NCBI RefSeq assembly: GCF_041886205.1 | Contig: NZ_CP169029.1 | Strand: one strand, 5' to 3' | Length of the DNA: 64,000 bases | DNA from: Escherichia coli | GTDB taxonomy: Bacteria > Pseudomonadota > Gammaproteobacteria > Enterobacterales > Enterobacteriaceae | In this document: one piece after another, positions 3,892 through 59,692 of the stretch | Position numbering within the stretch: position 1 is the first letter of the stretch | Layout: every line of letters starts with the position of its first letter | Translations under genes and position numbers: made by a program | Notes under the pieces: generated by a model | The model's input: only the letters and a program-made list of their open reading frames with translations | What the model was told of the DNA's origin: nothing | The model's database searches: none

Positions 3892-4500
3892 TCAGGTGCG
3901 CTTATCGTCAACCGTTGTGCGGTATGCCAGGAGCACGTACTGATCCATCAGATCCGTCAGTGCTGCGCTCTGCTTCTGACGGTTGATGATCCATTCCTCC
4001 AGCTCTTTTTCTGATTTCCGTTTCAGATTCTCCGTCCAGTCGTCAAGGCAGTTTCCGGTCATTAAATCAAGCCAGCAAAGCCAGACCAGTTTGAGGCGCA
4101 ACTCCGTGCCACCAAACTGACGGAAGAGGCTGATCAGTTTATTTGCCAGCGAACGCTGCCTCAGACGTTCACATTCAGACAGGAGAATGCCTTCCAGCAT
4201 CGGATGATGAACCAGCAGATGTTCACTGGTGCATAAATTCACTATCAGATCATCATCCAGGGGCGGCGTGGTCCGTTTGTCCGGACCATAAATCAGCCGG
4301 TGCAGACTCTGGGGTACGATGGCAATCTCCGGTTTTTCACCATTGAATGACACCCACCCGGGCGTCAGATTATGGAAGTAGTAGATATTCGGATGACACA
4401 CGCCCCAGGATACGGCGTGCCGGGTGAAGCCGGTCAGCCATTTCTGGTAGCTTTCGTGGAGCAGCTCGTAACGGGTCTGATACTGTGGTTTCATTTTCAT
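3892..4500 (-). CDS. hypothetical island protein (about 203 aa)
   Basis: ORF 3892..4641; internal ATG at 4500 (MKMKPQYQTRYELL) with a GAGGA RBS avoids overlap with alpA. Confidence 0.45.
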   Translation of the reverse strand: MKMKPQYQTRYELLHESYQKWLTGFTRHAVSWGVCHPNIYYFHNLTPGWVSFNGEKPEIAIVPQSLHRLIYGPDKRTTPPLDDDLIVNLCTSEHLLVHHPMLEGILLSECERLRQRSLANKLISLFRQFGGTELRLKLVWLCWLDLMTGNCLDDWTENLKRKSEKELEEWIINRQKQSAALTDLMDQYVLLAYRTTVDDKRT

Positions 4501-4580
4501 ATTCCTCACGGGGGATAACAGGCAGCAGAACGCCGCCGGCAGGCCGGAGACTGCGTCTGTTGCAGATGAACGGTTAAGAA

Positions 4581-4787
4581 TTACGGACGGGACTGTGCAA
4601 TACGCGCCTGCAGCCAGGCTTCCACTTCGCTTTTCAGCCATCGGGAGCTGCGGCCCATTTTGATGGGCGCAGGAAAGTCACCATCCTTGATGAGTTTGTA
4701 AAACCACTTATCGGTCAGGCCGGTCAGTTGAGTGATAAATGCCATGTCGACCATCTGGTCATCCATCAGTGAAACTGGGGTGATCAT
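4581..4787 (-). CDS. alpA: AlpA-family island/prophage transcriptional regulator (small HTH protein)
   Basis: 68-aa product MITPVSLMDDQMVDMAFITQLTGLTDKWFYKLIKDGDFPAPIKMGRSSRWLKSEVEAWL from the internal ATG at 4787 of ORF 4581..4859. Confidence 0.8.
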   Translation of the reverse strand: MITPVSLMDDQMVDMAFITQLTGLTDKWFYKLIKDGDFPAPIKMGRSSRWLKSEVEAWLQARIAQSRP

Positions 4788-6412
4788 GAGAATGTTCCTC
4801 CGGATGTTGTTAAACCAGCCGGTGTGGTCATGAAAACAACGCACCACCTTCACCGGCATAACAACCGGGGAGAAACGTAAAAAATAATCGGGAATGTGAC
4901 CGCCAGGAGATAAACGGGGAGGTTACGGTGGCTGAGCCGTACCGGTATGCCGGGTGGTTGTTACGAAACGATGCTTCCGCACGCGCGCGCGATAAAGAAG
5001 GGATGATTTTCGTGAGGAAGAGGGGAAAACTGGCGTTCTGATAATTGCAGAGTTATTTACGGGGCGGTTACGATGGGGCAGACCATGTCCGGTGGGCAGG
5101 CGACAGGTATCACCGATGGGATAAGACTGTCTGATTGGTATTATAAATATAAGAAGTTATCAGAGAGTAACGTAAAGGATTTGCCAGAATAACCTAAGAG
5201 AGTAAATCTCTCCGGTAACAGAGCGCTGTGAAGCATTCTGTATCAGAGTGCAAATACATGAACGCTGATGCGTAAAATCAGCAGTGACACGCCAGCTCCC
5301 CCTATGCCCATTCCTGTATAAGACATGAACTGAGCGTATTAATGCTCCTGCCCTGAAACTGAGCCGGTGAGTGAGGGGCTGAGAAATCCCTCTTGACACA
5401 GCTCTAACCAGAAATACTTCCCCGGTTGTTGCGGTGCGTCCGGATCCCCGATAACGGAACACTAAGGCTGTATTGCGGGACACCAGGTAAGTGGCAGCCC
5501 GTAATACGTCAGGAGACGCGGGAAAAGTGATTTCCCATACGCGTTATAAACTTACCCCTGCGGAGATGGAAGCCTTCAACTCTGCGGTCGATCACCGACT
5601 GGCAGAACTGACAATGAACAAGCTTTACGATCGTGTTCCCGCTTCAGTCTGGAAATATGTCATCTGAGCGTTCGGTAATCACAACTGCATCGCGCCAGGT
5701 GTTATCCGCTTTGTGATTCTTATTGGCTCTTCTCAGGTTATTAAAAGCTGAATATGTTCCTGTTGTCGGGAACTAGGATAATACCGGGAACGTTAAGCGG
5801 TATAGCGACAACAAAGAATTCGAAATCAAAAGGGAATGGTGTACGGAGGTGTAGGCGGTAATGGGCCGATTTTCGGGCATTACCGACCTCTGCTGAGGTT
5901 TTCTCGTATTTATCGGGGAGCTGGTGCGTTACTGTCACTGTCTGGCACAGCAAACGCAGAGGTGGCGGGGCGCTCTGCTCCGCTGACTCCGGCTAATCTC
6001 TCCCCTTTTACCTACTGCAACAGTACAAATACACTGACGCCTGAAATGACAGCCAGAATCAGCACAGGCAGTAACGTCAGTAGACAAAGCAGACGATCGG
6101 TATTTCGGTAATAATCGAAGGGATCTGCTGACACGTAGCCCGGGCAACATTCCGTATTATGAGGGATGGCGTTATCACAATCCCTGCACACCGTTTTGCG
6201 TATCACCATCACGTCCTCCTCACAATCTTATCCGTAACCGGCTTTTTGCATTAAAAAAACAACGCTGAAAATTCAGCCGTCAGTCCGGAGACGACAGTCG
6301 GGTTATCTCAGAGTGCCTGAGATATTGCCTGGTTGGAGATCACTTCAGGGACTCTGCGCATTTTTTACGGCGTGGTTAATCCGTATGAACGAAACCATAC
6401 GGAGATTTAACC

Positions 6413-7142: not shown

Positions 7143-7475
7143 ATGACGATGTACGCAAAATCCTTTCTCGCACTTGATGGCAACGGGCGTCTGACTGGTG
7201 CCCGTACCGCACAGACTGCACCTTACGATCGCTACACTTGCCACCTTTGCGGCAGTACACTCAGATACCATCCGCAATACGACACTGAACTTCCCTGGTT
7301 TGAACACACTGACGAAGGGCTGACTAAGCACGGTCATGAGTGCCCTTATGTCAGACCGGAGTGCAGAGAAATACAACTGATTAAGCGTCTGCAGAAATTC
7401 GTACCGGATGCCTTACCCGTGGTGCGTAAAGCCAGCTGGCACTGCACGAAACAAGGCATTGGATCTTGTAGGTAA
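7143..7475 (+). CDS. GC-rich N-terminal segment with a Cys/His cluster (zinc-ribbon-like); possibly the 5' part of a frameshifted or recombined gene continuing in 7408..7725
   Basis: 110-aa ORF containing YTCHLCGS...HGHECPY; it overlaps the next ORF in another frame for 68 nt. Confidence 0.35.
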   Translation: MTMYAKSFLALDGNGRLTGARTAQTAPYDRYTCHLCGSTLRYHPQYDTELPWFEHTDEGLTKHGHECPYVRPECREIQLIKRLQKFVPDALPVVRKASWHCTKQGIGSCR

Positions 7476-7725
7476 TTTAGGAGCGGACTCTAAGCCAGTT
7501 ATCGGACGTTTGGAAGTCAGCGCTGGTAATGGGAAAGTCATAGGGCGGCAATCCAGCGACGGAAAAGTTGGTTGGCGTGTTGATTATGATCCTGAAAAAG
7601 GCACACACATATATATATGGGATTACTCACAGGGTAAAGGTCCTGGAAAAGCGGTGAAGCAAGTCATACCTTTTGAAGGCAATGAAAAGTCTTTTGAAAC
7701 AAAATTGAAACAGCTAAACAGGTAG
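7408..7725 (+). CDS. small toxin-like C-terminal domain (GC-poor), putative
   Basis: 105-aa ORF ending ...GKVGWRVDYDPEKGTHIYIWDYSQGKG...; marked GC drop relative to 7143-7440; its stop lies 5 nt before the next start. Confidence 0.4.
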   Translation: MPYPWCVKPAGTARNKALDLVGNLGADSKPVIGRLEVSAGNGKVIGRQSSDGKVGWRVDYDPEKGTHIYIWDYSQGKGPGKAVKQVIPFEGNEKSFETKLKQLNR

Positions 7726-7730
7726 AGTAA

Positions 7731-8105
7731 ATGACTTTATTTGATGAGTGTCGGGAAGCACTGAGTGCTGATTTTAATATAGTAGAGGGGCTGGCTCAGC
7801 AGGAGGCTATGGGCATTTTAAATAAGTATCCTCTCGCGAAAGGACGTGTTACTTGGTCAGAGATCAGGCATTCTGATTATGAGAGTTTTGATGAGTTATT
7901 GAGTGCAAACTCTGTAAAAAACGATGACATGTTTGTCTTTGCAGATGATGCAAGTATTCCAGTTTTTAGGTCAAATCTAAGATTAATCGCTGAAAATATC
8001 TATGACGTAACAGCTTTATCGCCCAAATTATTCATTTTTAATGATGAAGTGATAATACAACCTTTATTCCCAACTGATATGTTCCGTTTAGGAATCAAGA
8101 AATAG
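7731..8105 (+). CDS. putative cognate immunity/antitoxin protein (124 aa, acidic, GC-poor)
   Basis: Tightly coupled downstream ORF with AGGTAGAG RBS-like sequence, followed by a terminator hairpin. Confidence 0.45.
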   Translation: MTLFDECREALSADFNIVEGLAQQEAMGILNKYPLAKGRVTWSEIRHSDYESFDELLSANSVKNDDMFVFADDASIPVFRSNLRLIAENIYDVTALSPKLFIFNDEVIIQPLFPTDMFRLGIKK

Positions 8106-8291: not shown

Positions 8292-8836
8292 ATGGGGAAC
8301 GAAAAGAGTTTAGCGCACACCCGATGGAACTGTAAATATCACATAGTTTTTGCGCCAAAATACCGAAGACTGGTGTTCTATAGAGAGAAGCGTAGAGCAA
8401 CAGGCAGTATTTTGAGAAAGCTGTGTGAGTGGAAAAGCGTACGGATTCTTGAAGCTGAATGCTGTGCAGATCATGTCCATATGATTGTGGAGACCCGCCC
8501 AAAATGAGCGTATCCGGCTTTATGGGATATCTGAAAGGGAAAAGCAGTCCGATGCTTTACGAGCAGTCTGGGGATTTGAAATTCAAATACAGGAACAGGG
8601 AGTTCTGGTGCAGAGGGTACTACGTCGATACGGTGGGTAAGAACATGGCGAAGATACAGGATTACATAAAGCACCAGCTTGAAGAGGATAAAATGGGAGA
8701 GCAGTTATCGATTCCCTATCCGGGCAGCCCGTTTAATTCTGGAGGATATTTATTATCAGAAACAGGTCATATTCATATAATAAATAATGTATATAATTTT
8801 ATTGTTAAGTATGTAAAGGATAATACAGCATGGTAG
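8292..8836 (+). pseudogene. tnpA: IS200/IS605-family Y1 transposase TnpA, frameshifted
   Basis: ORF 8292..8507 (MGNEKSLAHTRWNCKYHIVFAPKYRR...HVHMIVE) and ORF 8459..8836 (...MSVSGFMGYLKGKSSPMLYEQSGDLKFKYRNREFWCRGYYVDTVGKN) together reconstruct a typical IS200 TnpA split by a frameshift near 8500. Confidence 0.8.
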
Positions 8837-9156
8837 TTTTGCGACATAACACACAAAAACAACACTCATGAAACAAAATGCCTTTATATGTTTTTATTTT
8901 GATGCATAATTGTTAATGACTATGAATGAGGGATGCAACACTATCGCATCTTCGGTTATTCCCTTAAATACTTACCTGCCATATGTCCGTATGGCAGGCT
9001 TTTTTCATTAACAGGCTTGCTGTTACATATCACTGTATTTCTCTTTTCCTTCCCTGTACTGCTTTTAGACTGGCCCCCTGAATCTCCAGACAACCAGTAT
9101 CACTTATTTAAGTGATAGTCTTAATACTAGTTTTTAGACTAGTCATTGGAGAACAG

Positions 9157-9521
9157 ATGATTGATGTCTTAGGGCCGGAGAAACGCAGACGGCGTACCAC
9201 ACAGGAAAAGATCGCAATTGTTCAGCAGAGCTTTGAACCGGGGATGACGGTCTCCCTCGTTGCCCGGCAACATGGTGTAGCAGCCAGCCAGTTATTTCTC
9301 TGGCGTAAGCAATACCAGGAAGGAAGTCTTCTGCTGTGGCCGCCGGAGAACAGGTTGTTCCTGCCTCTGAGCTTGCTGCCGCCATGAAGCAGATTAAAGA
9401 ACTCCAGCGCCTGCTCGGCAAGAAAACGATGGAAAATGAACTCCTCAAAGAAGCCGTTGAATATGGACGGGCAAAAAAGTGGATAGCGCACGCGCCCTTA
9501 TTGCCCGGGGATGGGGAGTAA
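9157..9521 (+). pseudogene. insC: IS2 InsC (OrfA) with a 1-bp deletion frameshift
   Basis: [58 protein letters not shown] then frame changes; the downstream ORF 9336..9521 carries the InsC C-terminus. The sequence reads GGAAGTCTT-CTGCTGTGGC at 9321-9340 where, from memory, canonical IS2 has one extra A. Confidence 0.75.
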
Positions 9522-10384
9522 GCTTAGTCAGCCGTTGTCTCCGGGTGTCGCGTGCGCAGTTGCACGTCATTCTCAGACGAACCGATGACTGGATGGATGG
9601 CCGCCGCAGTCGTCACACTGATGATACGGATGTGCTTCTCCGTATACACCATGTTATCGGGGAGCTGCCCACGTATGGTTATCGTCGGGTATGGGCGCTG
9701 CTTCGCAGACAGGCAGAACTTGATGGTATGCCTGCGATCAATGCCAAACGTGTTTACCGGATCATGCGCCAGAATGCGCTGTTGCTTGAGCGAAAACCTG
9801 CTGTACCGCCATCGAAACGGGCACATACAGGCAGAGTGGCCGTGAAAGAAAGCAATCAGCGATGGTGCTCTGACGGGTTCGAGTTCTGCTGTGATAACGG
9901 AGAGAGACTGCGTGTCACGTTCGCGCTGGACTGCTGTGATCGTGAGGCACTGCACTGGGCGGTGACTACCGGCGGCTTCAACAGTGAAACAGTACAGGAC
10001 GTCATGCTGGGAGCGGTGGAACGCCGCTTCGGCAACGAGCTTCCGGCGTCTCCAGTAGAGTGGCTGACGGATAATGGTTCATGCTACCGGGCTAATGAAA
10101 CACGGCAGTTTGCCCGGATGTTGGGGCTTGAACCGAAGAGCACGGCGGTGCGGAGTCCGGAGAGTAACGGCATAGCAGAGAGCTTCGTGAAAACGATAAA
10201 GCGTGACTACATCAGTGTCATGCCCAAACCAGACGGGTTAACGGCAGCAAAGAACCTTGCAGAGGCGTTCGAGCATTATAACGAATGGCATCCGCATAGT
10301 GCACTGGGTTATCGCTCGCCACGGGAATATCTACGGCAGCAAGCCAGTAATGGGTTAAGTGATAACAGGTGTCTGGAAATATAG
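9479..10384 (+). CDS. insD: IS2 InsD (OrfB) DDE transposase, 301 aa, apparently intact
   Basis: Full-length ORF with the integrase-core region (...[47 protein letters not shown]...). Confidence 0.9.
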
Positions 10385-10670
10385 GGGCAAATCCAGCTTT
10401 ATCGTCCGTGTGCTGGTGTTATATATGAGGGAAGCAGAGTTGTCGCCGGACCCAGTTCTGGTGTGCAGTGCTGCATTGTCGTAATGTCCGTGATTGATAA
10501 TCATGCTTCTTGTATAACGACAATGAGATGTCCGGGCTCAAATCATAATGTGGTCAGGGCGTCATCGCGAAAATTCGGTTATCATAAATACCTTTCGTTT
10601 TTTCCAGGGCTTTACAGGCAGACCAGTTGAAAAGCACCGTAATATCGAAAAGTAATAACTCTGGAGACAT

Positions 10671-13903: not shown

Positions 13904-13990
13904 ACTTAGATGTCCGTCTATATCAGATGGGCGTCTAAGTTACCAATTCTCGTCTGATGGCTACATACGGCGGTCAGTTTACGCTTACAC

Positions 13991-14211
13991 AACAATGGCG
14001 CGAGGGAAAGCTGCTATTACCTTCTTCAGAGAGCCCCCAGCTACTTCCTGTGACTCTTGATGCAGTTGCCGAACAGCCAGAATCGCTCGCAGAGGACCCG
14101 GAAACCCTCAGTATCAGTTGTGAGGTAACGTTCCGGCACGGGACGCTCCGCTTCAATGGCAATGTCAGCGAAAAGCTCCTGACTCTGCTGATACAGGAAC
14201 TGAAGCGATGA
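13991..14211 (+). pseudogene. tnpA: IS66-family TnpA, C-terminal fragment only
   Basis: Matches the C-terminal 73 aa of ORF 25092..25493 (...[54 protein letters not shown]). Confidence 0.8.
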
Positions 14212-14558
14212 TCCCGTTACCTTCCGGGACCAAAATTTGGCTGGTTGCCGGTATCACCGATATGAGAAATGGCTTCAACGGCCTGGCTGCGAAAGTACAA
14301 ACGGCGCTGAAAGACGATCCCATGTCCGGCCATGTTTTCATTTTCCGGGGCCGCAGCGGCAGTCAGGTTAAACTGCTGTGGTCCACCGGTGACGGACTGT
14401 GCCTCCTGACCAAACGGCTGGAGCGTGGGCGCTTCGCCTGGCCGTCAGCCCGTGATGGCAAAGTGTTCCTTACGCAGGCGCAGCAACTGGCGATGCTGCT
14501 GGAAGGTATCGACTGGCGACAGCCTAAGCGGCTGCTGACCTCCCTGACCATGCTGTAA
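14208..14558 (+). CDS. tnpB: IS66-family TnpB
   Basis: 116 aa [31 protein letters not shown]...; ATGA overlap with tnpA. Confidence 0.85.
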
Positions 14559-14607
14559 ATCTCTTTATCCTGGTTGTCACAGAATAAGCCCGGTAAAATA
14601 CGGGCTT

Positions 14608-16179
14608 ATGAACGACATTTCTTCTGACGACATCTTCCTGCTGAAACAGCGCCTGGCCGAACAGGAAGCGCTGATCCACGCCCTGCAGGAAAAGCTGAGC
14701 AACCGGGAGCGCGAAATAGACCATCTGCAGGCGCAGTTGGATAAACTCCGCCGGATGAACTTCGGCAGTCGTTCCGAAAAAGTCTCCCGCCGTATCGCAC
14801 AAATGGAAGCCGATCTGAACCGGCTTCAGAAAGAGAGCGATACGCTGACTGGTAGGGTGTATGACCCGGCAGTACAGCGTCCGTTGCGTCAGACCCGCAC
14901 CCGTAAGCCGTTCCCTGAATCACTACCCTGTGACGAAAAGCGACTGTTGCCTGCGGCGCCGTGCTGCCCGAACTGCGGCGGTTCACTGAGCTATCTGGGC
15001 GAGGATACCGCCAAACAGCTGGAGTTGATGCGTAGCGCCTTCCGGGTTATCCGGACGGTACGGGAAAAACATGCCTGTACTCAGTGCGATGCCATCGTGC
15101 AGGCACCTGCACCTTCGCGGCCCATCGAGCGGGGTATCGCCGGACCGGGGCTGCTGGCCCGCGTGCTGACCTCGAAGTATGCAGAGCACACCCCGCTGTA
15201 TCGCCAGTCAGAAATATACGGCCGGCAAGGTGTGGAGCTGAGCCGTTCACTGTTGTCGGGCTGGGTGGATGCATGCTGCCGGCTGCTGTCTCCGCTGGAA
15301 GAGGCGCTTCATGGCTATGTCATGACTGACGGCAAACTCCATGCCGATGATACCCCGGTCCAGGTACTGCTGCCGGGTAATAAGAAGACGAAGACCGGGC
15401 GGTTGTGGGCGTATAAGAAGACGAAGACCGGGCGGTTGTGGGCGTATGTTCGTGATGACCGCAATGCCGGGTCAGCGTTGGCACCTGCAGTGTGGTTCGC
15501 TTACAGCCCGGACAGAAAAGGCATCCATCCGCAGACTCATCTTGCTTGCTTCAGCGGTGTGCTGCAAGCGGATGCGTACGCCGGGTTCAACGAGCTGTAT
15601 CGCAATGGTGGGATAACGGAAGCTGCCTGCTGGGCTCATGCCCGCCGAAAGATCCACGATGTGCACGTCCGCATCCCGTCAGCACTGACGGAAGAAGCCC
15701 TGGAGCAGATCGGTCAGTTGTACGCCATAGAGGCGGATATAAGGGGAATGCCGGCAGAGCAGCGGCTTGCTGAACGTCAGCGAAAAACGAAACCGCTGTT
15801 GAAATCCCTGGAAAGCTGGTTGCGTGAAAAGATGAAGACCCTGTCGCGACACTCAGAGTTGGCGAAGGCGTTCGCGTACGCACTTAACCAGTGGCCGGCA
15901 CTGACGTACTATGCGAACGATGGCTGGGTGGAAATCGACAACAACATCGCTGAAAATGCCCTGCGGGCGGTCAGTCTGGGTCGTAAAAACTTCCTGTTCT
16001 TCGGCTCTGACCATGGTGGTGAGCGGGGAGCGCTACTGTACAGCCTGATCGGGACGTGCAAACTGAATGACGTGGATCCAGAAAGCTACCTTCGCCATGT
16101 GCTTGGCGTCATAGCAGACTGGCCGGTCAACCGGGTCAGCGAACTGCTTCCGTGGCGCATAGCACTGCCAGCTGAATAA
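14608..16179 (+). CDS. tnpC: IS66-family TnpC transposase (523 aa) carrying an in-frame 33-bp tandem duplication
   Basis: Full-length ORF with the CPNCGGSL zinc-ribbon-like motif; [11 protein letters not shown] is repeated twice (15382..15447). Confidence 0.85.
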
Positions 16180-16351
16180 CACATCCCCGTCAATACGGCC
16201 CTCGCTGTACGCTTACGAGTAAGATTTCTTAAAAAATATAACAATAACAAAAAATTGAAATATATCACAAAAAAATCAATATACCCCTTATAAGGCCTGG
16301 ATGACTGTACAGCATGTATATGCCAGAAAACCGGTTTATGTGAATCAGGGT

Positions 16352-17086
16352 TTACCCGTCACCAGTTGTGTCCTTAATACCATACTGTTTTAACCACTGA
16401 CAGGGAGTGACTGAGTAGTATTTTCTGAAACTTAAAATAAAATACGACAGACTGCTATATCCGCACTCTCTAGCGACAATAAAAATGTTAGCATTCCCGC
16501 ACTTCATCAGAGTTATTGCCTTTTTCATACGTACTTCTGTGATTATCCGGCTGAATCCTGCGCCTTCACTGTGCAGTTTTCTTTTAAGCTGACTGGCACT
16601 TATACATAACGCTGATGCAACATCTGACAGATACCATTTCTTTGCCGGCTCTGCGGCAACAATAGCTTCAACACGTAACGAGTAGTTATTCAGCCCACCG
16701 GACAATACAGGCAGCAACTGGTTTTTATCATTAAGATAATCCAGCAGCACAAATAATACTGACTCATAAAGGTTAGTATTTTTCTGTTGTTCCACAAGTG
16801 ACATCAGCGAGTTCAGAAAGGTACCATACGCTTTCTTTCTGAAAAAAGAATTTTTCCTGTCAGTGATGCATAACGCATCGGCATCCCTCAGTCTGATATA
16901 CAGATAGTCGCTGATGATATGACAGGGTATATCAATAAACCTCACACATCCTTCACAGGCATCCGTAATATACTGAATGTCATTTCTTTTAAGAAAGAGA
17001 ATTTCATTCCGGGCAAAATCAAGCTCTTCATTGTAAAATGAAGCACAGAATGGCCTCACTATAATGGCAAAACAATACGGAAACAT
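16352..17086 (-). CDS. AraC-family transcriptional regulator (Rns/CfaD-like, AT-rich gene)
   Basis: 244-aa ORF with a C-terminal AraC-type HTH (...YLSDVASALCISASQLKRKLHSEGAGFSRIITEVRMKKAITLM...GYSSLSYFILSFRKYYSVTPCQW...). Confidence 0.7.
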   Translation of the reverse strand: MFPYCFAIIVRPFCASFYNEELDFARNEILFLKRNDIQYITDACEGCVRFIDIPCHIISDYLYIRLRDADALCITDRKNSFFRKKAYGTFLNSLMSLVEQQKNTNLYESVLFVLLDYLNDKNQLLPVLSGGLNNYSLRVEAIVAAEPAKKWYLSDVASALCISASQLKRKLHSEGAGFSRIITEVRMKKAITLMKCGNANIFIVARECGYSSLSYFILSFRKYYSVTPCQWLKQYGIKDTTGDG

Positions 17087-17241
17087 ACAGTACAGGTGTT
17101 ATTTAGAAATATCCGGTATTTTTCTTATTATAGCTGACAGACTTACTTCCTGACATTATATTAAGAAGTTCGATTTTATTATTAAAGTAACCGGACAAAA
17201 TACAGTCCGGTCACCGTGGTTATACGCGCATATAAATGTTA

Positions 17242-17871
17242 TCAGTCACCTTCATTCAGGCTGACAGTATCCGTAATCACACCATCTTCTGCACCTTTCA
17301 GTGCAAGATTGGCTTCGTAGTATTTCCCTTCGCTCATTAATTTTTGCGCACTGTTAACCTTTTTCTGCGTCTGTTTTAATGGCATCAGCCACTGCGTTTC
17401 TGAAATATCAATTCCGGCGAGATGCAGTACGTCAATTGCTCCTTTTTTGTCACCTTTATCCAGTTTTTTATTGGCCTCATCAATAGCTTTCTGTTTTTCC
17501 GGGGTGACAGTAAAGTCTTCAGACAACATTAAGCTGCTGTTAATAATAATGTAGACATCGCCTTCCTGTGGTGTTTTTTTATCCTTGCGGACAACTGTTT
17601 CCCATGTTTTATCATCAGATTTAAGCAAATCTTCAGCCCGGTTTATCAGCTTATCTGCTGCTCCTGTGTCACCACTGAATAAGGCAAGACGTGCATACTG
17701 CATGTCATCCATAATTTCCATACCACGCTGTTCTGCCTTCAGACTCCTTTCTGATAAAACTGTCTGAGCCTCATTTTTTGTGGATGAAGTGTTTTCTGAA
17801 GTTGCTGAGGCCATTGCGACAGCAGAGGTCAGGGACAGAGCGATTGCTACAGCATTAAAGATATGTTTCAT
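17242..17871 (-). CDS. yfdX: YfdX-family periplasmic protein
   Basis: 209 aa with signal peptide MKHIFNAVAIALSLTSAVAMA and a conserved C-terminal ...SEGKYYEANLALKGAEDGVI... region. Confidence 0.7.
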   Translation of the reverse strand: MKHIFNAVAIALSLTSAVAMASATSENTSSTKNEAQTVLSERSLKAEQRGMEIMDDMQYARLALFSGDTGAADKLINRAEDLLKSDDKTWETVVRKDKKTPQEGDVYIIINSSLMLSEDFTVTPEKQKAIDEANKKLDKGDKKGAIDVLHLAGIDISETQWLMPLKQTQKKVNSAQKLMSEGKYYEANLALKGAEDGVITDTVSLNEGD

Positions 17872-18490
17872 ATTTTTTACTCCGACATCAGGCAGAAAGA
17901 ATCATACCTGATAATAAACATAATATGATTTTCCCCCTGACGATTAGTCATATACTCAGGAAGCCGGACAAGGATGTCCCCCTCCCGGACATTTATATTC
18001 CCCTATCCGGCATGCATATTTTATGTTCTGCAACTGATATAAGAAATCTGACCACTTACCCCCACACAAAAAATAAATACCGAACCGGTAATATCACAAT
18101 ACATCATTATAAAATTATATTTATGTTACCAGTAATTTTTATGCCATCACAAGCCCAAAAAATCATTAATAACCCACCCCGCTCCATGCAAATAAAAGAA
18201 AATACATTTCACATGAAATACCATGATATATATATTGCCCGGAGTGATGGTGTTTTTATGAAGCAATTTAAATAATACAGATAACTGTAATTTATCATTC
18301 AGACGAAGAGATTTGATTTACACGGTAAGAGCATATGGCACATTACAACAGGGGTCTCTGTGAATATATACAGAAAACATATCTCATAAAACCCGGGAAA
18401 TGCCCCATGAATACAGGACAGTGAAAACAGGCATGATAATCAGGAAAGCCATGCCTGATACAGAAAAAGTTACCTGCGGGGATAATGCAT

Positions 18491-18577
18491 GCGTATTTTC
18501 ATGGAAGGAGATCACTCAATAACTTCCATCGAGAGCGGGTAATAACTCACCGATCTCCTTCACGGTAATAAGCAATG
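18491..18577. repeat. copy 2 (most complete) of the unclassified palindromic repeat
   Basis: GCGTATTTTCATGGAAGGAGATCACTCAATAACTTCCATCGAGAGCGGGTAATAACTCACCGATCTCCTTCACGGTAATAAGCA; the arms AAGGAGATC and GATCTCCTT can pair. Confidence 0.6.
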
Positions 18578-18622
18578 CACAACCAGGCACTTACTGGCCG
18601 GTTATCCATGTCTATATTATAT

Positions 18623-18850
18623 TTACATCACGTCAGTTTTCATAAAGGCTGTGAACAGCCAGTAAATCAGGCCACTGAATACCAGCCACAGCACAACTAG
18701 GGCTGCAACCCTCACAGGGATATCACACTCTTCCGGCACTTTTTCCACAGCCATACTGCACAGATGGACTGTCATAACAGAAATCATCACAACAGCAAGG
18801 ATATGAATGAAAAGAAAAACGACTTTCATTTTCCGGAAATGCATATACAA
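18623..18850 (-). CDS. small hydrophobic (membrane) protein, hypothetical
   Basis: 75-aa ORF with two predicted transmembrane stretches; no family recognised. Confidence 0.25.
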   Translation of the reverse strand: MYMHFRKMKVVFLFIHILAVVMISVMTVHLCSMAVEKVPEECDIPVRVAALVVLWLVFSGLIYWLFTAFMKTDVM

Positions 18851-19162
18851 ACCCTGACTCAGCCTGTCCTGTCTTTCCTGATCCTCTGTAATCTTAACTT
18901 ATCCATGCGCTGACGAAGTCTGCCCGGAACACGCCCGCTCTTTCTTGAAATATGAGCACAGATAAAATCTTCAAGCAGAAAATGCATGTCCTGCATTACC
19001 ACATCTTCTTTTTTGTCTTTCACTGAAAAATGCCTGACAAAATCGCTCATGAAAATGTTTCTGAAACGCTGTTATCCAGCTTCAGAAACCGGTACTGCCT
19101 TCACCAACACAAATCATTTTGTTGTCACTGTCTGACCTGTTCTCCCCTCCCGGAACTCGCTG

Positions 19163-20197
19163 TTACTGATAGGAAAATGTAAATGTTGATATTCCGTTAA
19201 CCGTACCCGGATTAATTCCCTCACCAGTATTCACATACTTTACATACAACCGGACTGAGGGTGACGTTTCCGTTCCTGTTGATAACTGCCACTGGTTTTC
19301 ATTTCCCTTTACCGGCGAATCAGGTCCAAACTTCAGGGGCGTACTGTCAGTGTTTTTGTATATTCTCAGCCCGACTCCGGTTGCAGTCGATGCCCCCGTC
19401 AGTGTGAGTATATCGCTTCTGTTGGACGGTGTGGTCGCATCAGTCAGTGTTGCCCATACTGTTACTCCGGCATCACACTGTAATTTCAGTGATGTTGTCC
19501 CGGCGACAACTTCATCACCGGATGATGGCAGTTGTCCGGCAGAAATTGCAGCCAGGCTGACATTGACTGCGGAAGGTGTCAGTAATCTGCACGATGTTAC
19601 TGTGTCATTCAGCGTAAATGGATTCAGGCTGAAATTCACTGTGGTCTGAACACTGCCTGCAGATGAACCGTTATAGGGCCTCATTCTGATACTCCCGATG
19701 CTGGTCTTCTGTACACTGTATCGCGCAGAGGAATTTCTTTTTAAAATTACAGGTGTTACACGAACAGACAGTCCCTGGGTTGATGCAGTATTAGCTCCGA
19801 CACACCATCCGGAAAAGACATTTTCCCATGAGTTTCCGCTCATCGCGGTACCCCTGGAATAATTCGTGTCCCCCATCCATATAAGGAGCCCCACCTCCTC
19901 TGTCAGCCCATAAATACTCTGCCCGTCAAGACTGCCAACCACGGGTAAATCCACTTTCCCGTCCAGCCCGACACAAAATCCCTTAGAAATACGCCAGACA
20001 TTTGCATTCTGATATCCAATGTTGTTACCGGTATTATAGACAAATGGCAGGTTATCCATTGCATGAGTTCTGGAATAAGAGCCTGGAGATGGTCCCACAT
20101 CGTTTTCCGTACTGCCAATAAATGAAACTGCCGCCTGACTGATATTGCAGCAAACCAGAATGAATACAGCCAGAAAGACCTTATAAAAATTTGTCAT
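19163..20197 (-). CDS. fimbrial tip adhesin, F17-G-like two-domain adhesin (344 aa)
   Basis: Signal peptide, then an N-terminal lectin-like domain and a C-terminal pilin domain; last gene of a major pilin/chaperone/usher/adhesin operon. Confidence 0.7.
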
Positions 20198-20198
20198 A

Positions 20199-22736
20199 TT
20201 ATTGCCTCATGCATACTACATGATGGTTTTCCGGAACAGCATTTCCCCTGGCATTTTCTCCGGACGCACTATAGTGAATGACACAACTGTCATTCTGCCC
20301 GCTTCCCCAGACTATCCTGAGCATCCCTTTTTCAGCATCCAGGTCACGTACAAATAACCGGCCTCCCTGAGCAATGTAGCCTGCAGATTTCCCGTCTGCT
20401 GTTAATGCTTCCGCGGCCATCGGCGGCGGCGTTCCGTCCGGCATCTTCACATCAAACAACATGGCTTTCCCCGTTTTTGTTGTGAAGGTCACCATGGTGG
20501 TACTGTTGGCCCGGGGAATAATTTCCCGCTCTGTTGCAGACAGTTCCACATCCGCAGCCAGCGCTGTCGGGTCGATACTGATATAATTCTTTTCGTAAGG
20601 TGTGACATACGGAACAATGCCGTTACCCCAGGGGTCCAGCCGGTTACCCGGCGCATTATTAATCACCGCCCCACCGGCACCATCAGCATGAATAACGGTA
20701 AATGTGTCACCAAGGTCATTACTGGCCGTCACACCAAACGGATGCGCCACTATTGCCCCGGATATACCGGCAGATATCTGACGGTTATGGCGACTGTCAT
20801 TCCCTGCCGTGGCCTGCAGGGTGGCCACCGGTGAACGATAACTGCCATTCACCGCATACCCTGTCGGTCCGTTTTCCTGGGTGTTCAGGGACACACCATA
20901 TGACAACTGATTGTCATCCCCGCTGACACCACTGATACTGCTCTGAATGCTGTTACTGTTTTTATCGCTGACATTCACTGTCGTGGACAGCAACGTCCTT
21001 CCCGTATCTGAAAGTGGCAGGGAAAAACTGAAAAAGAACCGGTTATCATGATGATAATCACCACTCCGTCGGGTCTGGGAAAAGCCAATCTGGTAACTCA
21101 TTTTTTTCCAGACGTTGTTATAACCGGCCTGGTACTCATTGAATGTCCCTGTATGTCCCCAGTAATGATAAGTGGCTCCGGTCAGATACAGGTTTCCCCA
21201 TCCCTCACCAAGACTCTGGTTCACAGTCAGTTGCAACTGATTCCTTGGCCGGTAACCAGTTGCACTCCTGACCGATGAATCATTAATCACATCACGATTC
21301 CTGGTCAGGATGGCATCCCGAAGACTCCAGAAGTCACGGGATGAATAACGGTAAGCCGCCAGCGTCACATTTGTACTGGTTTCCGGTATTCGTGCACTGT
21401 AACCGGCATGCAGGCTGTAGCCGCGATGTGTCGTGTCAGAACCCGGGAAAGTCGTTCTGGCCAGCGTAATATCCGTGGCAACAGCCCCCAGTGGTGTATT
21501 GAATGCCACACCACCCAGCCCTGACAGATAATGAGGTGCGGTACTCATCCCCGTATTCAGGGTGATATCATTTGTCAGCCCGTACTGCAGGGTCCCCTGG
21601 AATACGGTATCGCTGAATGTCCTGTTACCGTAACGATAACGCCCGGCTGCCACCTGCCAGCGACTGAACCCCGGGCGAACCAGTTGTGCAACCGAAGCAA
21701 ACGGCACGATAAAACTCCTGGTCTGTCCGTCTGACTCTGTCACAGTGACTGTCAGGTCACCACCATATCCACTGGGATAAAGGTCACTGATGGAGAAAGG
21801 CCCTGCCGGCACGGTAGTTTCATAAATAATGTTACCGTTCTGCCGGACAGTAACCCTGGCGTTACTTCCGGCCATCCCCCGAACCACAGGGGCATAACCA
21901 CGCAACGAACCCGGCAGCATCCGGTCATCAGAAGCCAGTCTTATTCCCCTGAGGCTGTTACTGTCCATAAGCTCACCTGTGGTGGTGAAATCCCCCAGTG
22001 TCAGTTGCGCACGCAACATGGCTATGTCGTGCTGAAGGTTCGTTTCAATACTCCGGTAACCTTCTGCATGACCGTCACTCCAGCTTTCTGTCCCCCGGTG
22101 ACGAAATGCCCAGCCTCCTGCGTTAAAGCCGGCACGAAGACCAAGATAACTCTGATTATTTTCCATATCGGGCGTCCGGTAACGCCAGTGATTCACGTCA
22201 TAACTGACAAAGGCAGCCGGCACCCCCGTCTGCCACTGAGAAGGTGATATGTATCCCCGTGGACGGGAAACCAGCATGGCCTGCGGAATTTCAACATTCA
22301 GCCGCAGCAGTGACAGGTCAAAACGGATTTTGGCATCAGGTACAACTGCAGAAAATGGCATGCAACGACCATTTCCGGTATCCGGTTCACGGGCAACGGC
22401 CTCGGGTGACACATCCAGAATGGATAACAGTTCCGGCGTCACACACAGAACACTCTCCTCCTGTGAAGAGGACATATCACGGAATGACAATTCCGCATTT
22501 CCTTTCCATTCACCGTTCAGATAAATGTCTGAATAATAATTCCCTGAGGGAACAGGATTCCCGTGCGTGAAACGACGGACATCAATCACACTGCTCCCTG
22601 GCGTGCGGCTCAGAAAACTCGGGTCAAATTCTGCATCCTCTGCCGCCCACAAAGGCGCAGACAGCATATAAAGTCCCGGCAGACAACATAAATAAATGAC
22701 ACGATATTTCAGACCGGATAAAGAATAATGACTCAC
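20199..22736 (-). CDS. fimbrial outer-membrane usher (845 aa)
   Basis: Size and position between the chaperone and adhesin genes; typical usher length. Confidence 0.85.
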
Positions 22737-22749
22737 TTACGGGCCCTTA

Positions 22750-23472
22750 TTATTTCAGAACGGATTCACCTTTCTGGTAACCACCATTATCATTCACCAC
22801 CGTCCATTCCACTTTTCCTGACGGAGAAACCTTCTGCTTCAGTCTGAAAGTGACAGATGAAAACGGTGCGGCCATCCCCCCCTGAGTACTGCTGACTTTC
22901 TGAGCTCCCTGTCCGACACTGACAGTACTGAAGGTAATAAAATAAGGCGTGGGATTACTGGCCTGAAGGGTATCACCGCCTGTAAGCTGCCATGTCACTT
23001 TCTTATATGCATCATCAGGAGAAAAAGGCAGACCATCAGGACGGAAAAAAAACTTAATCCGGGTGCGTACGGCAAACTGAAGGTAATTATATCCCTGTGC
23101 TTTTTCAGATTTTCCGGCAAAAGAAGGTTTGGCCGGAATATCAAGAACATTCAGCCAGAACAGTGATTCCCTGTCTGCCGGAAGTTTTTCTCCCGTATAC
23201 ATAATTCGCATTGTCTGTCCGGAAAGCGGCTCCATCCGGAAAACAGGAGGCGTAATAATAAACGGCACCCTGACAGAGTCAGGAGGGGAAGACGGGTCCC
23301 CTGTATCAAGCCATGCCTGTATCAGGGATGGCGTACTGTCTCCGTTATTCAGCCGGACATTAATACTTTTTTGTTCTGCAGGATAAATAACCCTGGTCCC
23401 CATAATAACCACACTGCCATATGAGGGCAGAGACAAAAGAACGGTAAAAATGAACAGCAGAATATGTTTCAT
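22750..23472 (-). CDS. periplasmic fimbrial chaperone (PapD-like)
   Basis: Start MKHILLFIFTVLLSLPSYG at 23472 with a GGAG RBS; about 240 aa, immediately upstream of the usher. Confidence 0.85.
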   Translation of the reverse strand: MKHILLFIFTVLLSLPSYGSVVIMGTRVIYPAEQKSINVRLNNGDSTPSLIQAWLDTGDPSSPPDSVRVPFIITPPVFRMEPLSGQTMRIMYTGEKLPADRESLFWLNVLDIPAKPSFAGKSEKAQGYNYLQFAVRTRIKFFFRPDGLPFSPDDAYKKVTWQLTGGDTLQASNPTPYFITFSTVSVGQGAQKVSSTQGGMAAPFSSVTFRLKQKVSPSGKVEWTVVNDNGGYQKGESVLK

Positions 23473-23539
23473 ACAGGCTCCGTAAACACGGGGCAAAATG
23501 CCCCGTGAACACTTAAGAAGGCAGGTATTAAGATAAAAA

Positions 23540-24088
23540 TTACTGATAAGCGATGGTGTAATTCACAGTGGCAGAAACGTTGCCGGCGGTGGCCTGACCT
23601 GTTGCATAGTACTGTGCGTTATAACGTAATGTCATTGCGTCATTATTAATAACAACAGGTGTTACTCCCTGATTAGCAGAATCATTACCAAGTAGTATCT
23701 GTGTGGTACCATCAGCATTCAGAAGCTGAATCTGGACTTTTGTTGCGTTACCAGAGCCACTACTTGAAATATTAAGGTTATGGCTATCATAATCAGTGGT
23801 CGCATTAGGCTCAAAATAAGCCTTCACACTTTGAGCTCCTGTAGCGGCAGCAGTATTACACCCACTCAGTGAAATTGTGAAAGGAGTAAGGCCTGCTACC
23901 TTCCCGGTTGAATCTAATGATTTTGTGGAGACAGTTGGTAGTGTAACTGTCAAGGGATCGGTTCCTGTAGTAACAGAACAAGTTTGATCAACAACTTTTC
24001 CATTAAAAGTAATTGTACCGTCATAAGCAAGTGTAGCAGAAGATGACGCAGCCGCCAGTATTCCAAGGATAAATTGAATTTTCCGCAT
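23540..24088 (-). CDS. major fimbrial subunit, F17-A-like pilin (182 aa)
   Basis: MRKIQFILGILAAASSSATLAYDGTITFNGKVVDQTCSV...NYTIAYQ resembles F17 major pilins (resemblance judged from memory, no alignment run). Confidence 0.8.
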   Translation of the reverse strand: MRKIQFILGILAAASSSATLAYDGTITFNGKVVDQTCSVTTGTDPLTVTLPTVSTKSLDSTGKVAGLTPFTISLSGCNTAAATGAQSVKAYFEPNATTDYDSHNLNISSSGSGNATKVQIQLLNADGTTQILLGNDSANQGVTPVVINNDAMTLRYNAQYYATGQATAGNVSATVNYTIAYQ

Positions 24089-24227
24089 AGAATCCTCAGT
24101 GAAACTGATAAGAATATATCATGAAAACAGCAGCAATTAAGAATTTAACTTAATATATTAAGAATAAATTTAATTGCCTATATACAAGATTATCCATAGT
24201 TAAAAAAACTCTCAAAACGTTAAAAAC

Positions 24228-24294
24228 GATCGATATTTCAATTTTGATAGATAAAAGCTATCAATAAACAAATTAACGATCGGTTGTAACGATC
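24228..24294. promoter_or_regulatory. cluster of three GATC (Dam) sites in ACGATCG contexts in the AT-rich region upstream of the fimbrial operon; candidate methylation-dependent switch
   Basis: GATC at 24228, 24278 and 24291, each within ACGATCG[AG]T. Confidence 0.3.
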
Positions 24295-25091
24295 GATAAA
24301 ATATATGAATCAACGTTGCCAAATAAAATAACACATCTGCAAAATAAAACTTTTTCATATTCAATAAATTAATTTCTATTTGTAACTATTACTTTTGATC
24401 ATGTATACGTTTTTAATCATAAATAATGATAATTAGCTTAGTTGATTATATAAAGGCTGTTTAGCCTGTGTTTAAGTTTTCATTTTTGTGAATTAAATCA
24501 CAAACAAGGATTTTCTGCGAATATAAATATATATAAAGTAAGATATATTATGTGCGTGTTTTATGCAGTTTATTTTTATTATCCCTATTTTCTGCAAAAC
24601 AACATATTAATCACTCTATCCATTTCTGACTCAGTTCCTTTTCTGTTCCAGGAAACCATTCATCATATTGCAGGAGAACACTCTCTGCGGGGAAATGGGA
24701 TGCAGAAACTTACAGACTACTGGCAACTTTAAATCTGTTTTTTCCGTTCAAAACGTGGGGGGATATAAGACCATACAGTGTCCAGCCAGGAAAAGTAACA
24801 ATAAAGCGCTACAGCATGGCTTCTTCCCCGGAAGAGTAGAGCGTAAAGAAGCTGTACATCACACCAATAAAGGAAACTGCCTGCACTTTTTCGCATCAGC
24901 CGTATTCTGAACAATCACCAGTGCCGCCCTCAACAGAATATACAGTATGATGATTTGGCTACCATGGCCAGGTTAACCAGTACGTTACGATGACTGTGCT
25001 GAGACATACTTATGGTCATCGTAAGCGTACAGCCTGAACCGTCTGGTCAGAATCTGACGAATTAGACAAAGTGGTGTCCACCAAATAAGTA

Positions 25092-25493
25092 GTGGGAACC
25101 AAAGTATCAGATATGCAGAAAAATGTGACTCCCGCCAGGCGAAAAGGCTGCCCTAATTATCCTCCCGAATTTAAACAGCAGCTCGTTGCTGCCTCCTGTG
25201 ACCCCGGGATATCCATCTCAAAACTTGCTCTTGAAAATGGCATTAACGCCAATCTGTTGTTCAAATGGCGACAACAATGGCGCGAGGGAAAGCTGCTATT
25301 ACCTTCTTCAGAGAGCCCCCAGCTACTTCCTGTGACTCTTGATGCAGTTGCCGAACAGCCAGAATCGCTCGCAGAGGACCCGGAAACCCTCAGTATCAGT
25401 TGTGAGGTAACGTTCCGGCACGGGACGCTCCGCTTCAATGGCAATGTCAGCGAAAAGCTCCTGACTCTGCTGATACAGGAACTGAAGCGATGA
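25092..25493 (+). CDS. tnpA: IS66-family TnpA
   Basis: 133-aa ORF, HTH region ...ISISKLALENGINANLLFKWRQQW... Confidence 0.85.
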   Translation: MGTKVSDMQKNVTPARRKGCPNYPPEFKQQLVAASCDPGISISKLALENGINANLLFKWRQQWREGKLLLPSSESPQLLPVTLDAVAEQPESLAEDPETLSISCEVTFRHGTLRFNGNVSEKLLTLLIQELKR

Positions 25494-25837
25494 TCCCGTT
25501 ACCTTCCGGGACCAAAATTTGGCTGGTTGCCGGTATCACCGATATGAGAAATGGCTTCAACGGCCTGGCTGCGAAAGTACAGACGGAGCTGAAAGACGAT
25601 CCCATGTCCGGCCATGTTTTCATTTTCCGGGGCCGCAGCGGTAGTCAGGTTAAACTGCTGTGGTCCACCGGTGACGGACTGTGCCTCCTGACCAAACGGC
25701 TGGAGCGTGGGCGCTTCGCCTGGCCGTCAGCCCGTGATGGCAAAGTGTTCCTTACGCAGGCGCAACTGGCGATGCTGCTGGAGGGTATAGTCTGGATGCA
25801 ACCGGGAAGGTCGAAAAGTAATAGTCTGCGGATCTGA
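25490..25837 (+). CDS. tnpB: IS66-family TnpB
   Basis: 115 aa, nearly identical to 14208..14558 over most of its length. Confidence 0.85.
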   Translation: MIPLPSGTKIWLVAGITDMRNGFNGLAAKVQTELKDDPMSGHVFIFRGRSGSQVKLLWSTGDGLCLLTKRLERGRFAWPSARDGKVFLTQAQLAMLLEGIVWMQPGRSKSNSLRI

Positions 25838-57994: not shown

Positions 57995-59330
57995 TACATT
58001 TGAGCCGGCCCCTTGAAACGCCAGACAGTGGATGTATCTTAAAATAAGAGATAGGCTTGGATATATGTCTAACACTAGTTCTAATTTTGAGATGACAGGA
58101 ACTTTGCTGGGGCAGGGGCTTCGTAAACGTAAAACTCCTCAGGAAAAAATTGACATTATTCAGCAGACAATGGAGCCTGGCATGACGGTGTCCCATGTGG
58201 CGCGTTTGCACAGTATTCAGCCCGGCCTGTTATTTAAGTGGAAAAAACAATATCTGGAAGGAAGTCTCACTGCTGTTGCTGCCGGAGAGGATGTTGTTCC
58301 TGCCTCAGAACTGGCTGCCGCTATAAAACAAATAAAAGAGTTACAGCGCTTTCTGGGTAAAAAACCATGGAAGTTGAGATCCTCAAAGAAGCAGTGGAGT
58401 ATGGTCAGTCGTAAAAATGGATAGCGCATGCGCCCTTGTTGCCAACGGACAAGGAATAACCATGGTAATCCGTATTCTGGACGTGTCGCGTGCGTAACTG
58501 GCACAACGGATGAAAATATCTGGTAATAAGCCGGATAAACGTCGTCGCAGATGTGATGAGGCTGCGGATGCGGAAGTGTTAGCACGCATCCTTGATATCA
58601 TCAGCGATATGCCGACATATGGCTATCGTCGTGTCCGGGCTATTCTCAGACGGCAGTCTTAACGAAGGACTGCAGTTCGTGAATGCAAATCGCGTTTATC
58701 GAATAATGAGCGAGAATAACCTGTTGTTATTACATGACAAACCTTCACGACCGCAGAGGGAACATAAAGGCCCGAATATCGGTGAAGGAAAGCGACCCGC
58801 GCTGGTGTGCCGATGGCTTTGAGTTCGGTTGTGATGATGACGAAAAACTGCGTGTCACGTTCGCACTGGACTGTTGCGATCTTGAATCCATAGACTGGGC
58901 CGCAAGCACGGGAGGTTATGGCAAAGCAACGGTGCAGGATGTCATGTCAGGAGCGATAGAAAAACGCTTTGGCGATAGACCGGGATGGCCCATCCAGTGG
59001 CTGACCGATAACGGTTCAGCTTATACAACTCATGAAACACGGCAGTTCGCCAGAGAGTTGAATCTGGAGCTCTGCACGACGGCAGTCAGTAGCCCTCAGA
59101 GTAATGGAATGAGAGAACGGTTCGTGAAAACGATGAAGAGCGATTACATCAGTATCATACCTAAACCGGACGTGTTAACGGCAGTAAAAAACCTTGCGGA
59201 GGCGTTCGAACACTATAACGAATAGCATCCTCATGGTGCCTTGGTTATCTCTCACCGAGGGAATATCAACGTCACTCGGTAACGTTAACTTAAGCTCAAC
59301 GGCTGTCTGGATATAGTGGTTCAAGGGCAC
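57995..59330 (+). mobile_element. degenerate IS2-like (IS3-family) element with fragmented orfA/orfB
   Basis: Left end resembles the IS2 left inverted repeat; orfA-like ORF 58032..58424 (...[78 protein letters not shown]...) and an orfB fragment 58734..59225 lacking the N-terminus. Confidence 0.7.
58734..59225 (+). pseudogene. IS2-like OrfB (InsD-like) transposase fragment
   Basis: ...[27 protein letters not shown]...[47 protein letters not shown]... matches the C-terminal two-thirds of InsD. Confidence 0.75.
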
Positions 59331-59692
59331 CTAAGGGCCTTATTTACGGTGTTTTCGCTGATTGGTTTACGCGGGTCATGTGCTCCCGTAAAGACCAGAC
59401 CATTTTCAACTGCCCATGTCTGAAGTTTTATCAGTATGGCTACAGCCTGTTTGCTGAGTGGCACAAGATGTGGTGTTCGCATCTTATGGATTCACCATTA
59501 TAGTGACATGTTCAAGATGATGATATATCTTTGAAAAGTGTTCTCTTTGCGAACGGTATAGAATTTCTAGCGTTACTTTTCATAATTACACTTTTTAGGG
59601 TTAGGCAGGCACAATCTATGCGCTGTCTTAGATAACTACATCCATTTTTACTGGACTACCACCAACAAAAATTTAGTGGTGCAGGAGAAAAC

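Follow-up and report, generated by a model that had tools for sequence, protein, structure and literature searches.

An IS2 insertion sequence lodged in non-coding DNA of Escherichia coli has a single base missing from orfA. The explanation that we hold with high confidence is that this copy inserted into the non-coding DNA, was later killed by the 1-bp deletion, and now persists as a non-autonomous pseudo-IS. The exact allele is already known: RefSeq records it in two genomes, each time as a frameshifted pseudogene.

The IS2 copy and its one-base deletion

The copy occupies positions 9066-10395 of the window (the whole 64,000-nucleotide stretch of DNA that we analysed) and is 1330 bp long. 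As reference we used IS2A of E. coli K-12 MG1655 (NC_000913.3 381260-382590, insC1/insD1), which measures 1331 bp, the difference being a 1-bp deletion. Aligned over their full length, the two elements are 98.1% identical, differing by 24 substitutions and a gap of one base. The initial 30 nt of IS2 at the left end (TAGACTGGCCCCCTGAATCTCCAGACAACC) matched exactly at one place in the whole window. The inverted repeats of IS2 are 42 bp (IRL) and 41 bp (IRR) long (PMC3299598); in the window copy IRL departs from that of K-12 IS2A at IS2 positions 32 and 42, and IRR departs from the K-12 sequence only at 10369. The following features were placed on the window:

9061-9065, no strand: left target-site duplication GCTTT, read directly
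9066-9107, plus strand: IRL, the 42-bp left inverted repeat, starting TAGACTGG, placed by the 30-nt exact match and the alignment to K-12 IS2A
9101-9114, plus strand: 14-bp palindrome CACTTATTTAAGTG, which covers the site described in the literature for docking of the OrfA repressor (in K-12, TAAATAA)
9157-9387, plus strand: frameshifted orfA (insC), whose 76-aa translation consists of 58 native and 18 out-of-frame residues
between 9330 and 9331, plus strand: 1-bp deletion, an A missing at IS2 position 266 in orfA codon 59 (ACT), placed by alignments
9331-9521, plus strand: orphaned 3' part of orfA in the native frame, with stop TAA 9519-9521 and the leucine-zipper-like dimerisation region
9473-9479, plus strand: programmed -1 frameshift window A AAA AAG (A6G), intact and in the native orfA frame
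9479-10384, plus strand: orfB (insD), a full-length open frame of 301 codons (Pfam rve; NCBIfam IS2 TnpB)
10355-10395, plus strand: IRR, a right inverted repeat of 41 bp whose last bases are ...AAATCCA, placed by the alignment to K-12 IS2A
10396-10400, no strand: right target-site duplication GCTTT, read directly

A target duplication of 5 bp is the usual length for IS2. By all structural and sequence criteria tested the element is an IS2 (IS3 family, IS2 group): it has (i) inverted-repeat ends and a size close to 1331 bp, (ii) a 5-bp target duplication, with GCTTT on both sides, (iii) orfA in frame 0 overlapped by orfB in frame -1, together with the A6G window, and (iv) the family signatures and the DD(35)E triad, the repaired OrfAB (see below) being used for the NCBIfam models. 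In architecture, ends, 5-bp duplication, A6G slip window and DDE triad it is like K-12 IS2A. A sequence-only reading of the same DNA had given the span as 9060-10400, which correctly brackets the element together with both GCTTT repeats.

Across the lesion the window reads GTCTT directly followed by CTGCTG, versus GTCTTACTGCTG in K-12 IS2A; the deletion allele across 9330/9331 is GTCTTCTGCTG. The A is present both in K-12 IS2A and in the IS2 that occupies the same site in strain EC-JS426. In these A-bearing copies it is flanked by T and C (CTT-A-CTG) and lies outside any homopolymer. When the A was restored in silico, orfA encoded a 121-aa OrfA identical to K-12 InsC1 at 121/121 positions, and the resulting OrfAB of 409 residues scored above the curated cut-offs of three NCBIfam models, those for IS2 TnpA, IS2 TnpB and the IS3-family transposase. 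By accession, the scores were 713.7 bits for NF006918 (cut-off 597), 238.8 for NF006928 (cut-off 229) and 278.8 for NF033516 (cut-off 160). The loss of one base in insC, splitting OrfA, had been suspected from the letters of the window within the interval 9325-9335, a suspicion that would have fallen had the reference IS2 read the same here. Alignment to K-12 IS2A and to the EC-JS426 copy bears it out: the deletion lies inside that interval, and K-12 IS2A has the extra A.

Reading frames and predicted products

In IS2, the A6G motif is the site of the -1 slippage that gives OrfAB (PMC3219604). Counted as codon starts modulo 3, the frame that opens at ATG 9157 is 1, native orfA past the lesion is 0 and orfB is 2. 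The deletion, 142 nt upstream of the A6G slip site, puts ribosomes in the third frame, where the premature stop TGA 9385-9387 precedes the slip window by 85 nt, so that full-length OrfA and OrfAB are both lost. From the lesion to the premature stop we found no frame-restoring -1 slippery heptamer or homopolymer of at least 5 bases. In an autonomous IS2, orfA runs uninterrupted from its start codon to the slip site; in the window copy it is interrupted. The element is predicted to make no full-length OrfA and no OrfAB transposase, and we infer that its transposition activity has been lost. The sequence-only reading had left two outcomes side by side, an altered OrfA/OrfAB ratio or an inactive element. 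The first falls away because the stop precedes the slip site, and it is the second that our reading of the frames favours.

The rest of the element is well preserved. orfB matches K-12 InsD1 at 295 of 301 residues, the six replacements looking conservative, and the catalytic residues D240, D306 and E342 (OrfAB numbering, from PMC3219604) are all in place. Since ends, slip site, orfB and DDE triad are intact, the copy would be non-autonomous and mobilisable at most in trans. Such mobilisation could in principle take place; within the 64-kb window we found no second IS2 that might act as transposase donor.

The window also holds an IS2-group (IS3-family) relic at about 58032-59274 on the plus strand, which is 69% identical to the IS2 copy and multiply frameshifted. 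Its OrfA-like ORF (58032-58424) reads through the position corresponding to the lesion of the IS2 copy. The relic adjoins a minus-strand fragment, at about 59321-59482, resembling a gene for a tyrosine recombinase/integrase.

Near the left end, the palindrome CACTTATTTAAGTG is the exact reverse complement of its K-12 version CACTTAAATAAGTG, the central AA being replaced by TT. Docking site and promoter have been mapped to IS2 bp 39-51 (PMC3299598), and in the window copy the extended -10 promoter PIRL starts at TGAT 9113-9116. The left-end variant (G32, T42, T43) occurred exactly in 598 of the 7,164 E. coli records that contain an IS2 left end. Judged by this count, the palindrome variant appears to be that of a widespread minority IS2 lineage and not private to the window copy.

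What could the products of the broken gene still do? In IS2 OrfA, the DNA-binding three-helix bundle comprises residues 13-58 and the leucine-zipper-like motif residues 70-103 (PMC3219604), and the dimerisation region of Lei & Hu, as reported in the same paper, covers residues 58-105. Pfam HTH_Tnp_1 covers residues 8-57 of the 76-aa product. With the deletion in codon 59, this product would thus keep the whole binding domain and lose all of the dimerisation region. Two in-frame start codons lie past the lesion, GTG 9336, which sits 8 nt past a AGGAAGGAAG stretch, and ATG 9384-9386, which overlaps the premature stop as ATGA (9384-9387). Reinitiation at either of them is speculative, and its products would be without the DNA-binding domain.

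These features could be taken to mean that the lesion re-tunes IS2. An HTH-only peptide, OrfA(1-58), would then repress at the IRL docking site, and truncated OrfA and OrfAB, produced by termination-reinitiation at ATGA or from a start at GTG 9336 and then by the programmed -1 slip, could use the leucine-zipper-like motif to disturb other IS2 copies in trans. The position of the break, exactly at the boundary between the binding domain (13-58) and the dimerisation region (58-105), invites such a reading, yet the published L58I substitution abolishes binding, and the altered residues after L58 may destabilise helix 3; mutations in the leucine-zipper-like motif lower DNA binding as well (both PMC3219604), and a monomeric HTH may bind poorly. 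Likewise, the ATGA overlap at the premature stop, the AGGAAGGAAG stretch 8 nt upstream of GTG 9336, and the intact slip site and orfB would suit the making of truncated products, but in two other carriers of the allele, JML285 and ZYB39 (described below), the chromosome contains the probed region of orfA only once and so offers no other copy with this part of orfA, the only kind on which these products could act. Moreover, the three carrier copies are 100% identical and show no sign of selection, and the allele is limited to one site and one small clade. We therefore regard re-tuning as very improbable. If it were true, the two half-proteins could together act in trans to damp the transposition of any IS2 that arrives, and the copy would be a transposition inhibitor domesticated by chance and not plain debris; we regard this as equally improbable.

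Insertion site, carriers and order of events

Our preferred reading, in which a resident IS2 was broken in place, can be followed at the insertion site itself. We built the empty site in silico by removing the IS2 and one GCTTT, which gave 600 bp, and searched it against 5,426 complete E. coli genomes. E. coli CE0011b holds the unoccupied site, matching 600/600 bases in one uninterrupted piece with a single GCTTT, and nine further genomes match across all 600 bases at 95.7-99.8% identity. In a three-way alignment the empty site reads ...CTGTACT-GCTTT-ATCGTCC..., and each window junction has one GCTTT. The single GCTTT in the empty site of CE0011b therefore identifies a simple insertion, which is what had been claimed from the GCTTT direct repeats alone. 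The annotation at the target shows no feature under the IS2, which thus lies in non-coding DNA, and a terminator-like hairpin (8975-8998), next to an IS200/IS605 remnant, is found about 60 bp upstream of the target.

The neighbourhood is a patchwork of other elements. Immediately upstream of the target lies an IS200/IS605-family tnpA remnant (8292-8734, plus strand), which is frameshifted and C-terminally truncated according to the annotation of its homologues in JML285 and ZYB39. The host region as a whole is a mosaic island rich in contact-dependent-inhibition (CDI) debris (window positions about 7400-8100 and about 14500-41000). It contains immunity genes for CDI toxins, fragments of VENN pre-toxins and a very large CdiA-like gene with hemagglutinin repeats, which in JML285 is a pseudogene, along with copies of IS66, IS100, IS3 and ISL3. 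About 10.8 kb of the window (14516-25271) is absent from JML285; this segment is bounded by a 528-bp direct repeat (13989-14516 and 25271-25795) whose copies are 98.3% identical.

The same 1330-bp allele, at the same site and with the same junctions, is present in E. coli JML285 (human, Japan) and ZYB39 (bovine, China). RefSeq/PGAP labels the gene "IS3-like element IS2 family transposase, frameshifted" in both (FFF71_RS20560 and KFZ69_RS21790, respectively), and both pseudogenes are 100% identical to the window element, deletion and both junctions included. The window is neither of these genomes: JML285 is collinear with it only to about 14.5 kb, and it is without the IS100 that ZYB39 has about 250 bp downstream of the IS2. 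Identity of the flanks to the window is 99.99% and 99.8% in the other two carriers, versus 98.7% (left flank) in EC-JS426, which has kept the A. That the flanks are most similar among the three carriers fits one inherited mutation.

How rare is the allele? We used a 60-bp deletion probe centred on the lesion. It found 10,673 places in 3,264 E. coli records and was exact in only two of them, JML285 and ZYB39; the other matches, among those listed, align with a one-base gap. Among plasmids (PLSDB), none of the 1,142 records with the region (1,520 places) carries the deletion allele, and an exact-pattern scan of the GTDB species representatives, one genome per bacterial species, found none either. 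We rejected the possibilities that the dead copy was mobilised in trans or that the mutation is recurrent, because the allele is absent from other E. coli genomes, plasmids and species representatives. These searches gave no sign that the defective IS2 ever moved to another site.

Another very improbable account makes the missing base an artefact of sequencing or assembly in the window, the real IS2 being intact and active. Although single-base indels are the commonest long-read assembly error, two complete genomes, sequenced independently and coming from different countries and hosts, have the same deletion at the orthologous site. The window is identical to neither and so makes a third genome, the deleted A is not part of a homopolymer, and the EC-JS426 copy that keeps the A sits in more distant flanks than those of the three carriers.

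An IS2 at the same site, with both junctions and with the A kept, was found in five genomes (EC-JS426, USDA-ARS-USMARC-50748, CE-O153H30, CFIAFB20190172 and LR025096). The EC-JS426 copy (NZ_CP072322.1 150196-151526) has the site, the GCTTT duplication and the IS2 lineage of the window copy and differs from it at two positions, the A, which is present, and a substitution at window position 10155. Its product in the PGAP annotation is an intact "programmed frameshift" transposase (WP_172600319.1). The substitution is a G-to-T change private to EC-JS426 (L003 position 7091), which makes OrfB S226I, at OrfAB residue 334, inside the catalytic region.

Besides ZYB39, there are nine genomes in which only the left flank of the IS2 site finds a match. 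In the two of these nine that we inspected, CP55_Sichuan and STEC1587, similarity to the window ends at 9765, about 700 bp into the IS2, and the A is kept. The pattern suggests a rearrangement or deletion, one endpoint of which lies inside the IS. Past 9765 (locus positions 4301-5001 and beyond) their sequence is unrelated to the window, with cob genes within about 2.5 kb, and 'IS30 family transposase, programmed frameshift', the name that PGAP gives to the hybrid CDS, looks like a misnomer.

The order of events is thus shown by the sequenced genomes: an empty site, then an intact IS2 insertion, and finally one deletion that arose in situ within a single small sublineage.

Proposed history and its meaning

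In the history that we propose, an IS2 of a minority but widespread lineage entered an E. coli genomic island by normal IS3-family transposition. It inserted into non-coding DNA by the IS200 remnant, about 60 bp past the hairpin, duplicating GCTTT. The resident copy later lost one A in orfA codon 59, in one strain sublineage. From then on, ribosomes starting at ATG 9157 would yield only a 76-aa peptide, the H+HTH domain followed by an 18-aa nonsense tail; with termination 85 nt ahead of A6G, both the OrfA regulator and the OrfAB transposase would remain unmade. The defective copy would since have been inherited vertically as a non-autonomous pseudo-IS.

Decay of resident IS copies by single lesions is routine, and the finding matters mainly for annotation: the gene should be entered as a pseudogene of IS2, and the copy as non-autonomous. 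In sequenced E. coli, the locus offers an ordered natural series that leads from the empty site through the intact insertion to in-situ inactivation by 1 bp, and that also takes in relatives with the right half of the IS replaced. It could be used to mark lineages of the genomic island, or to illustrate on a small scale the decay of resident IS elements.
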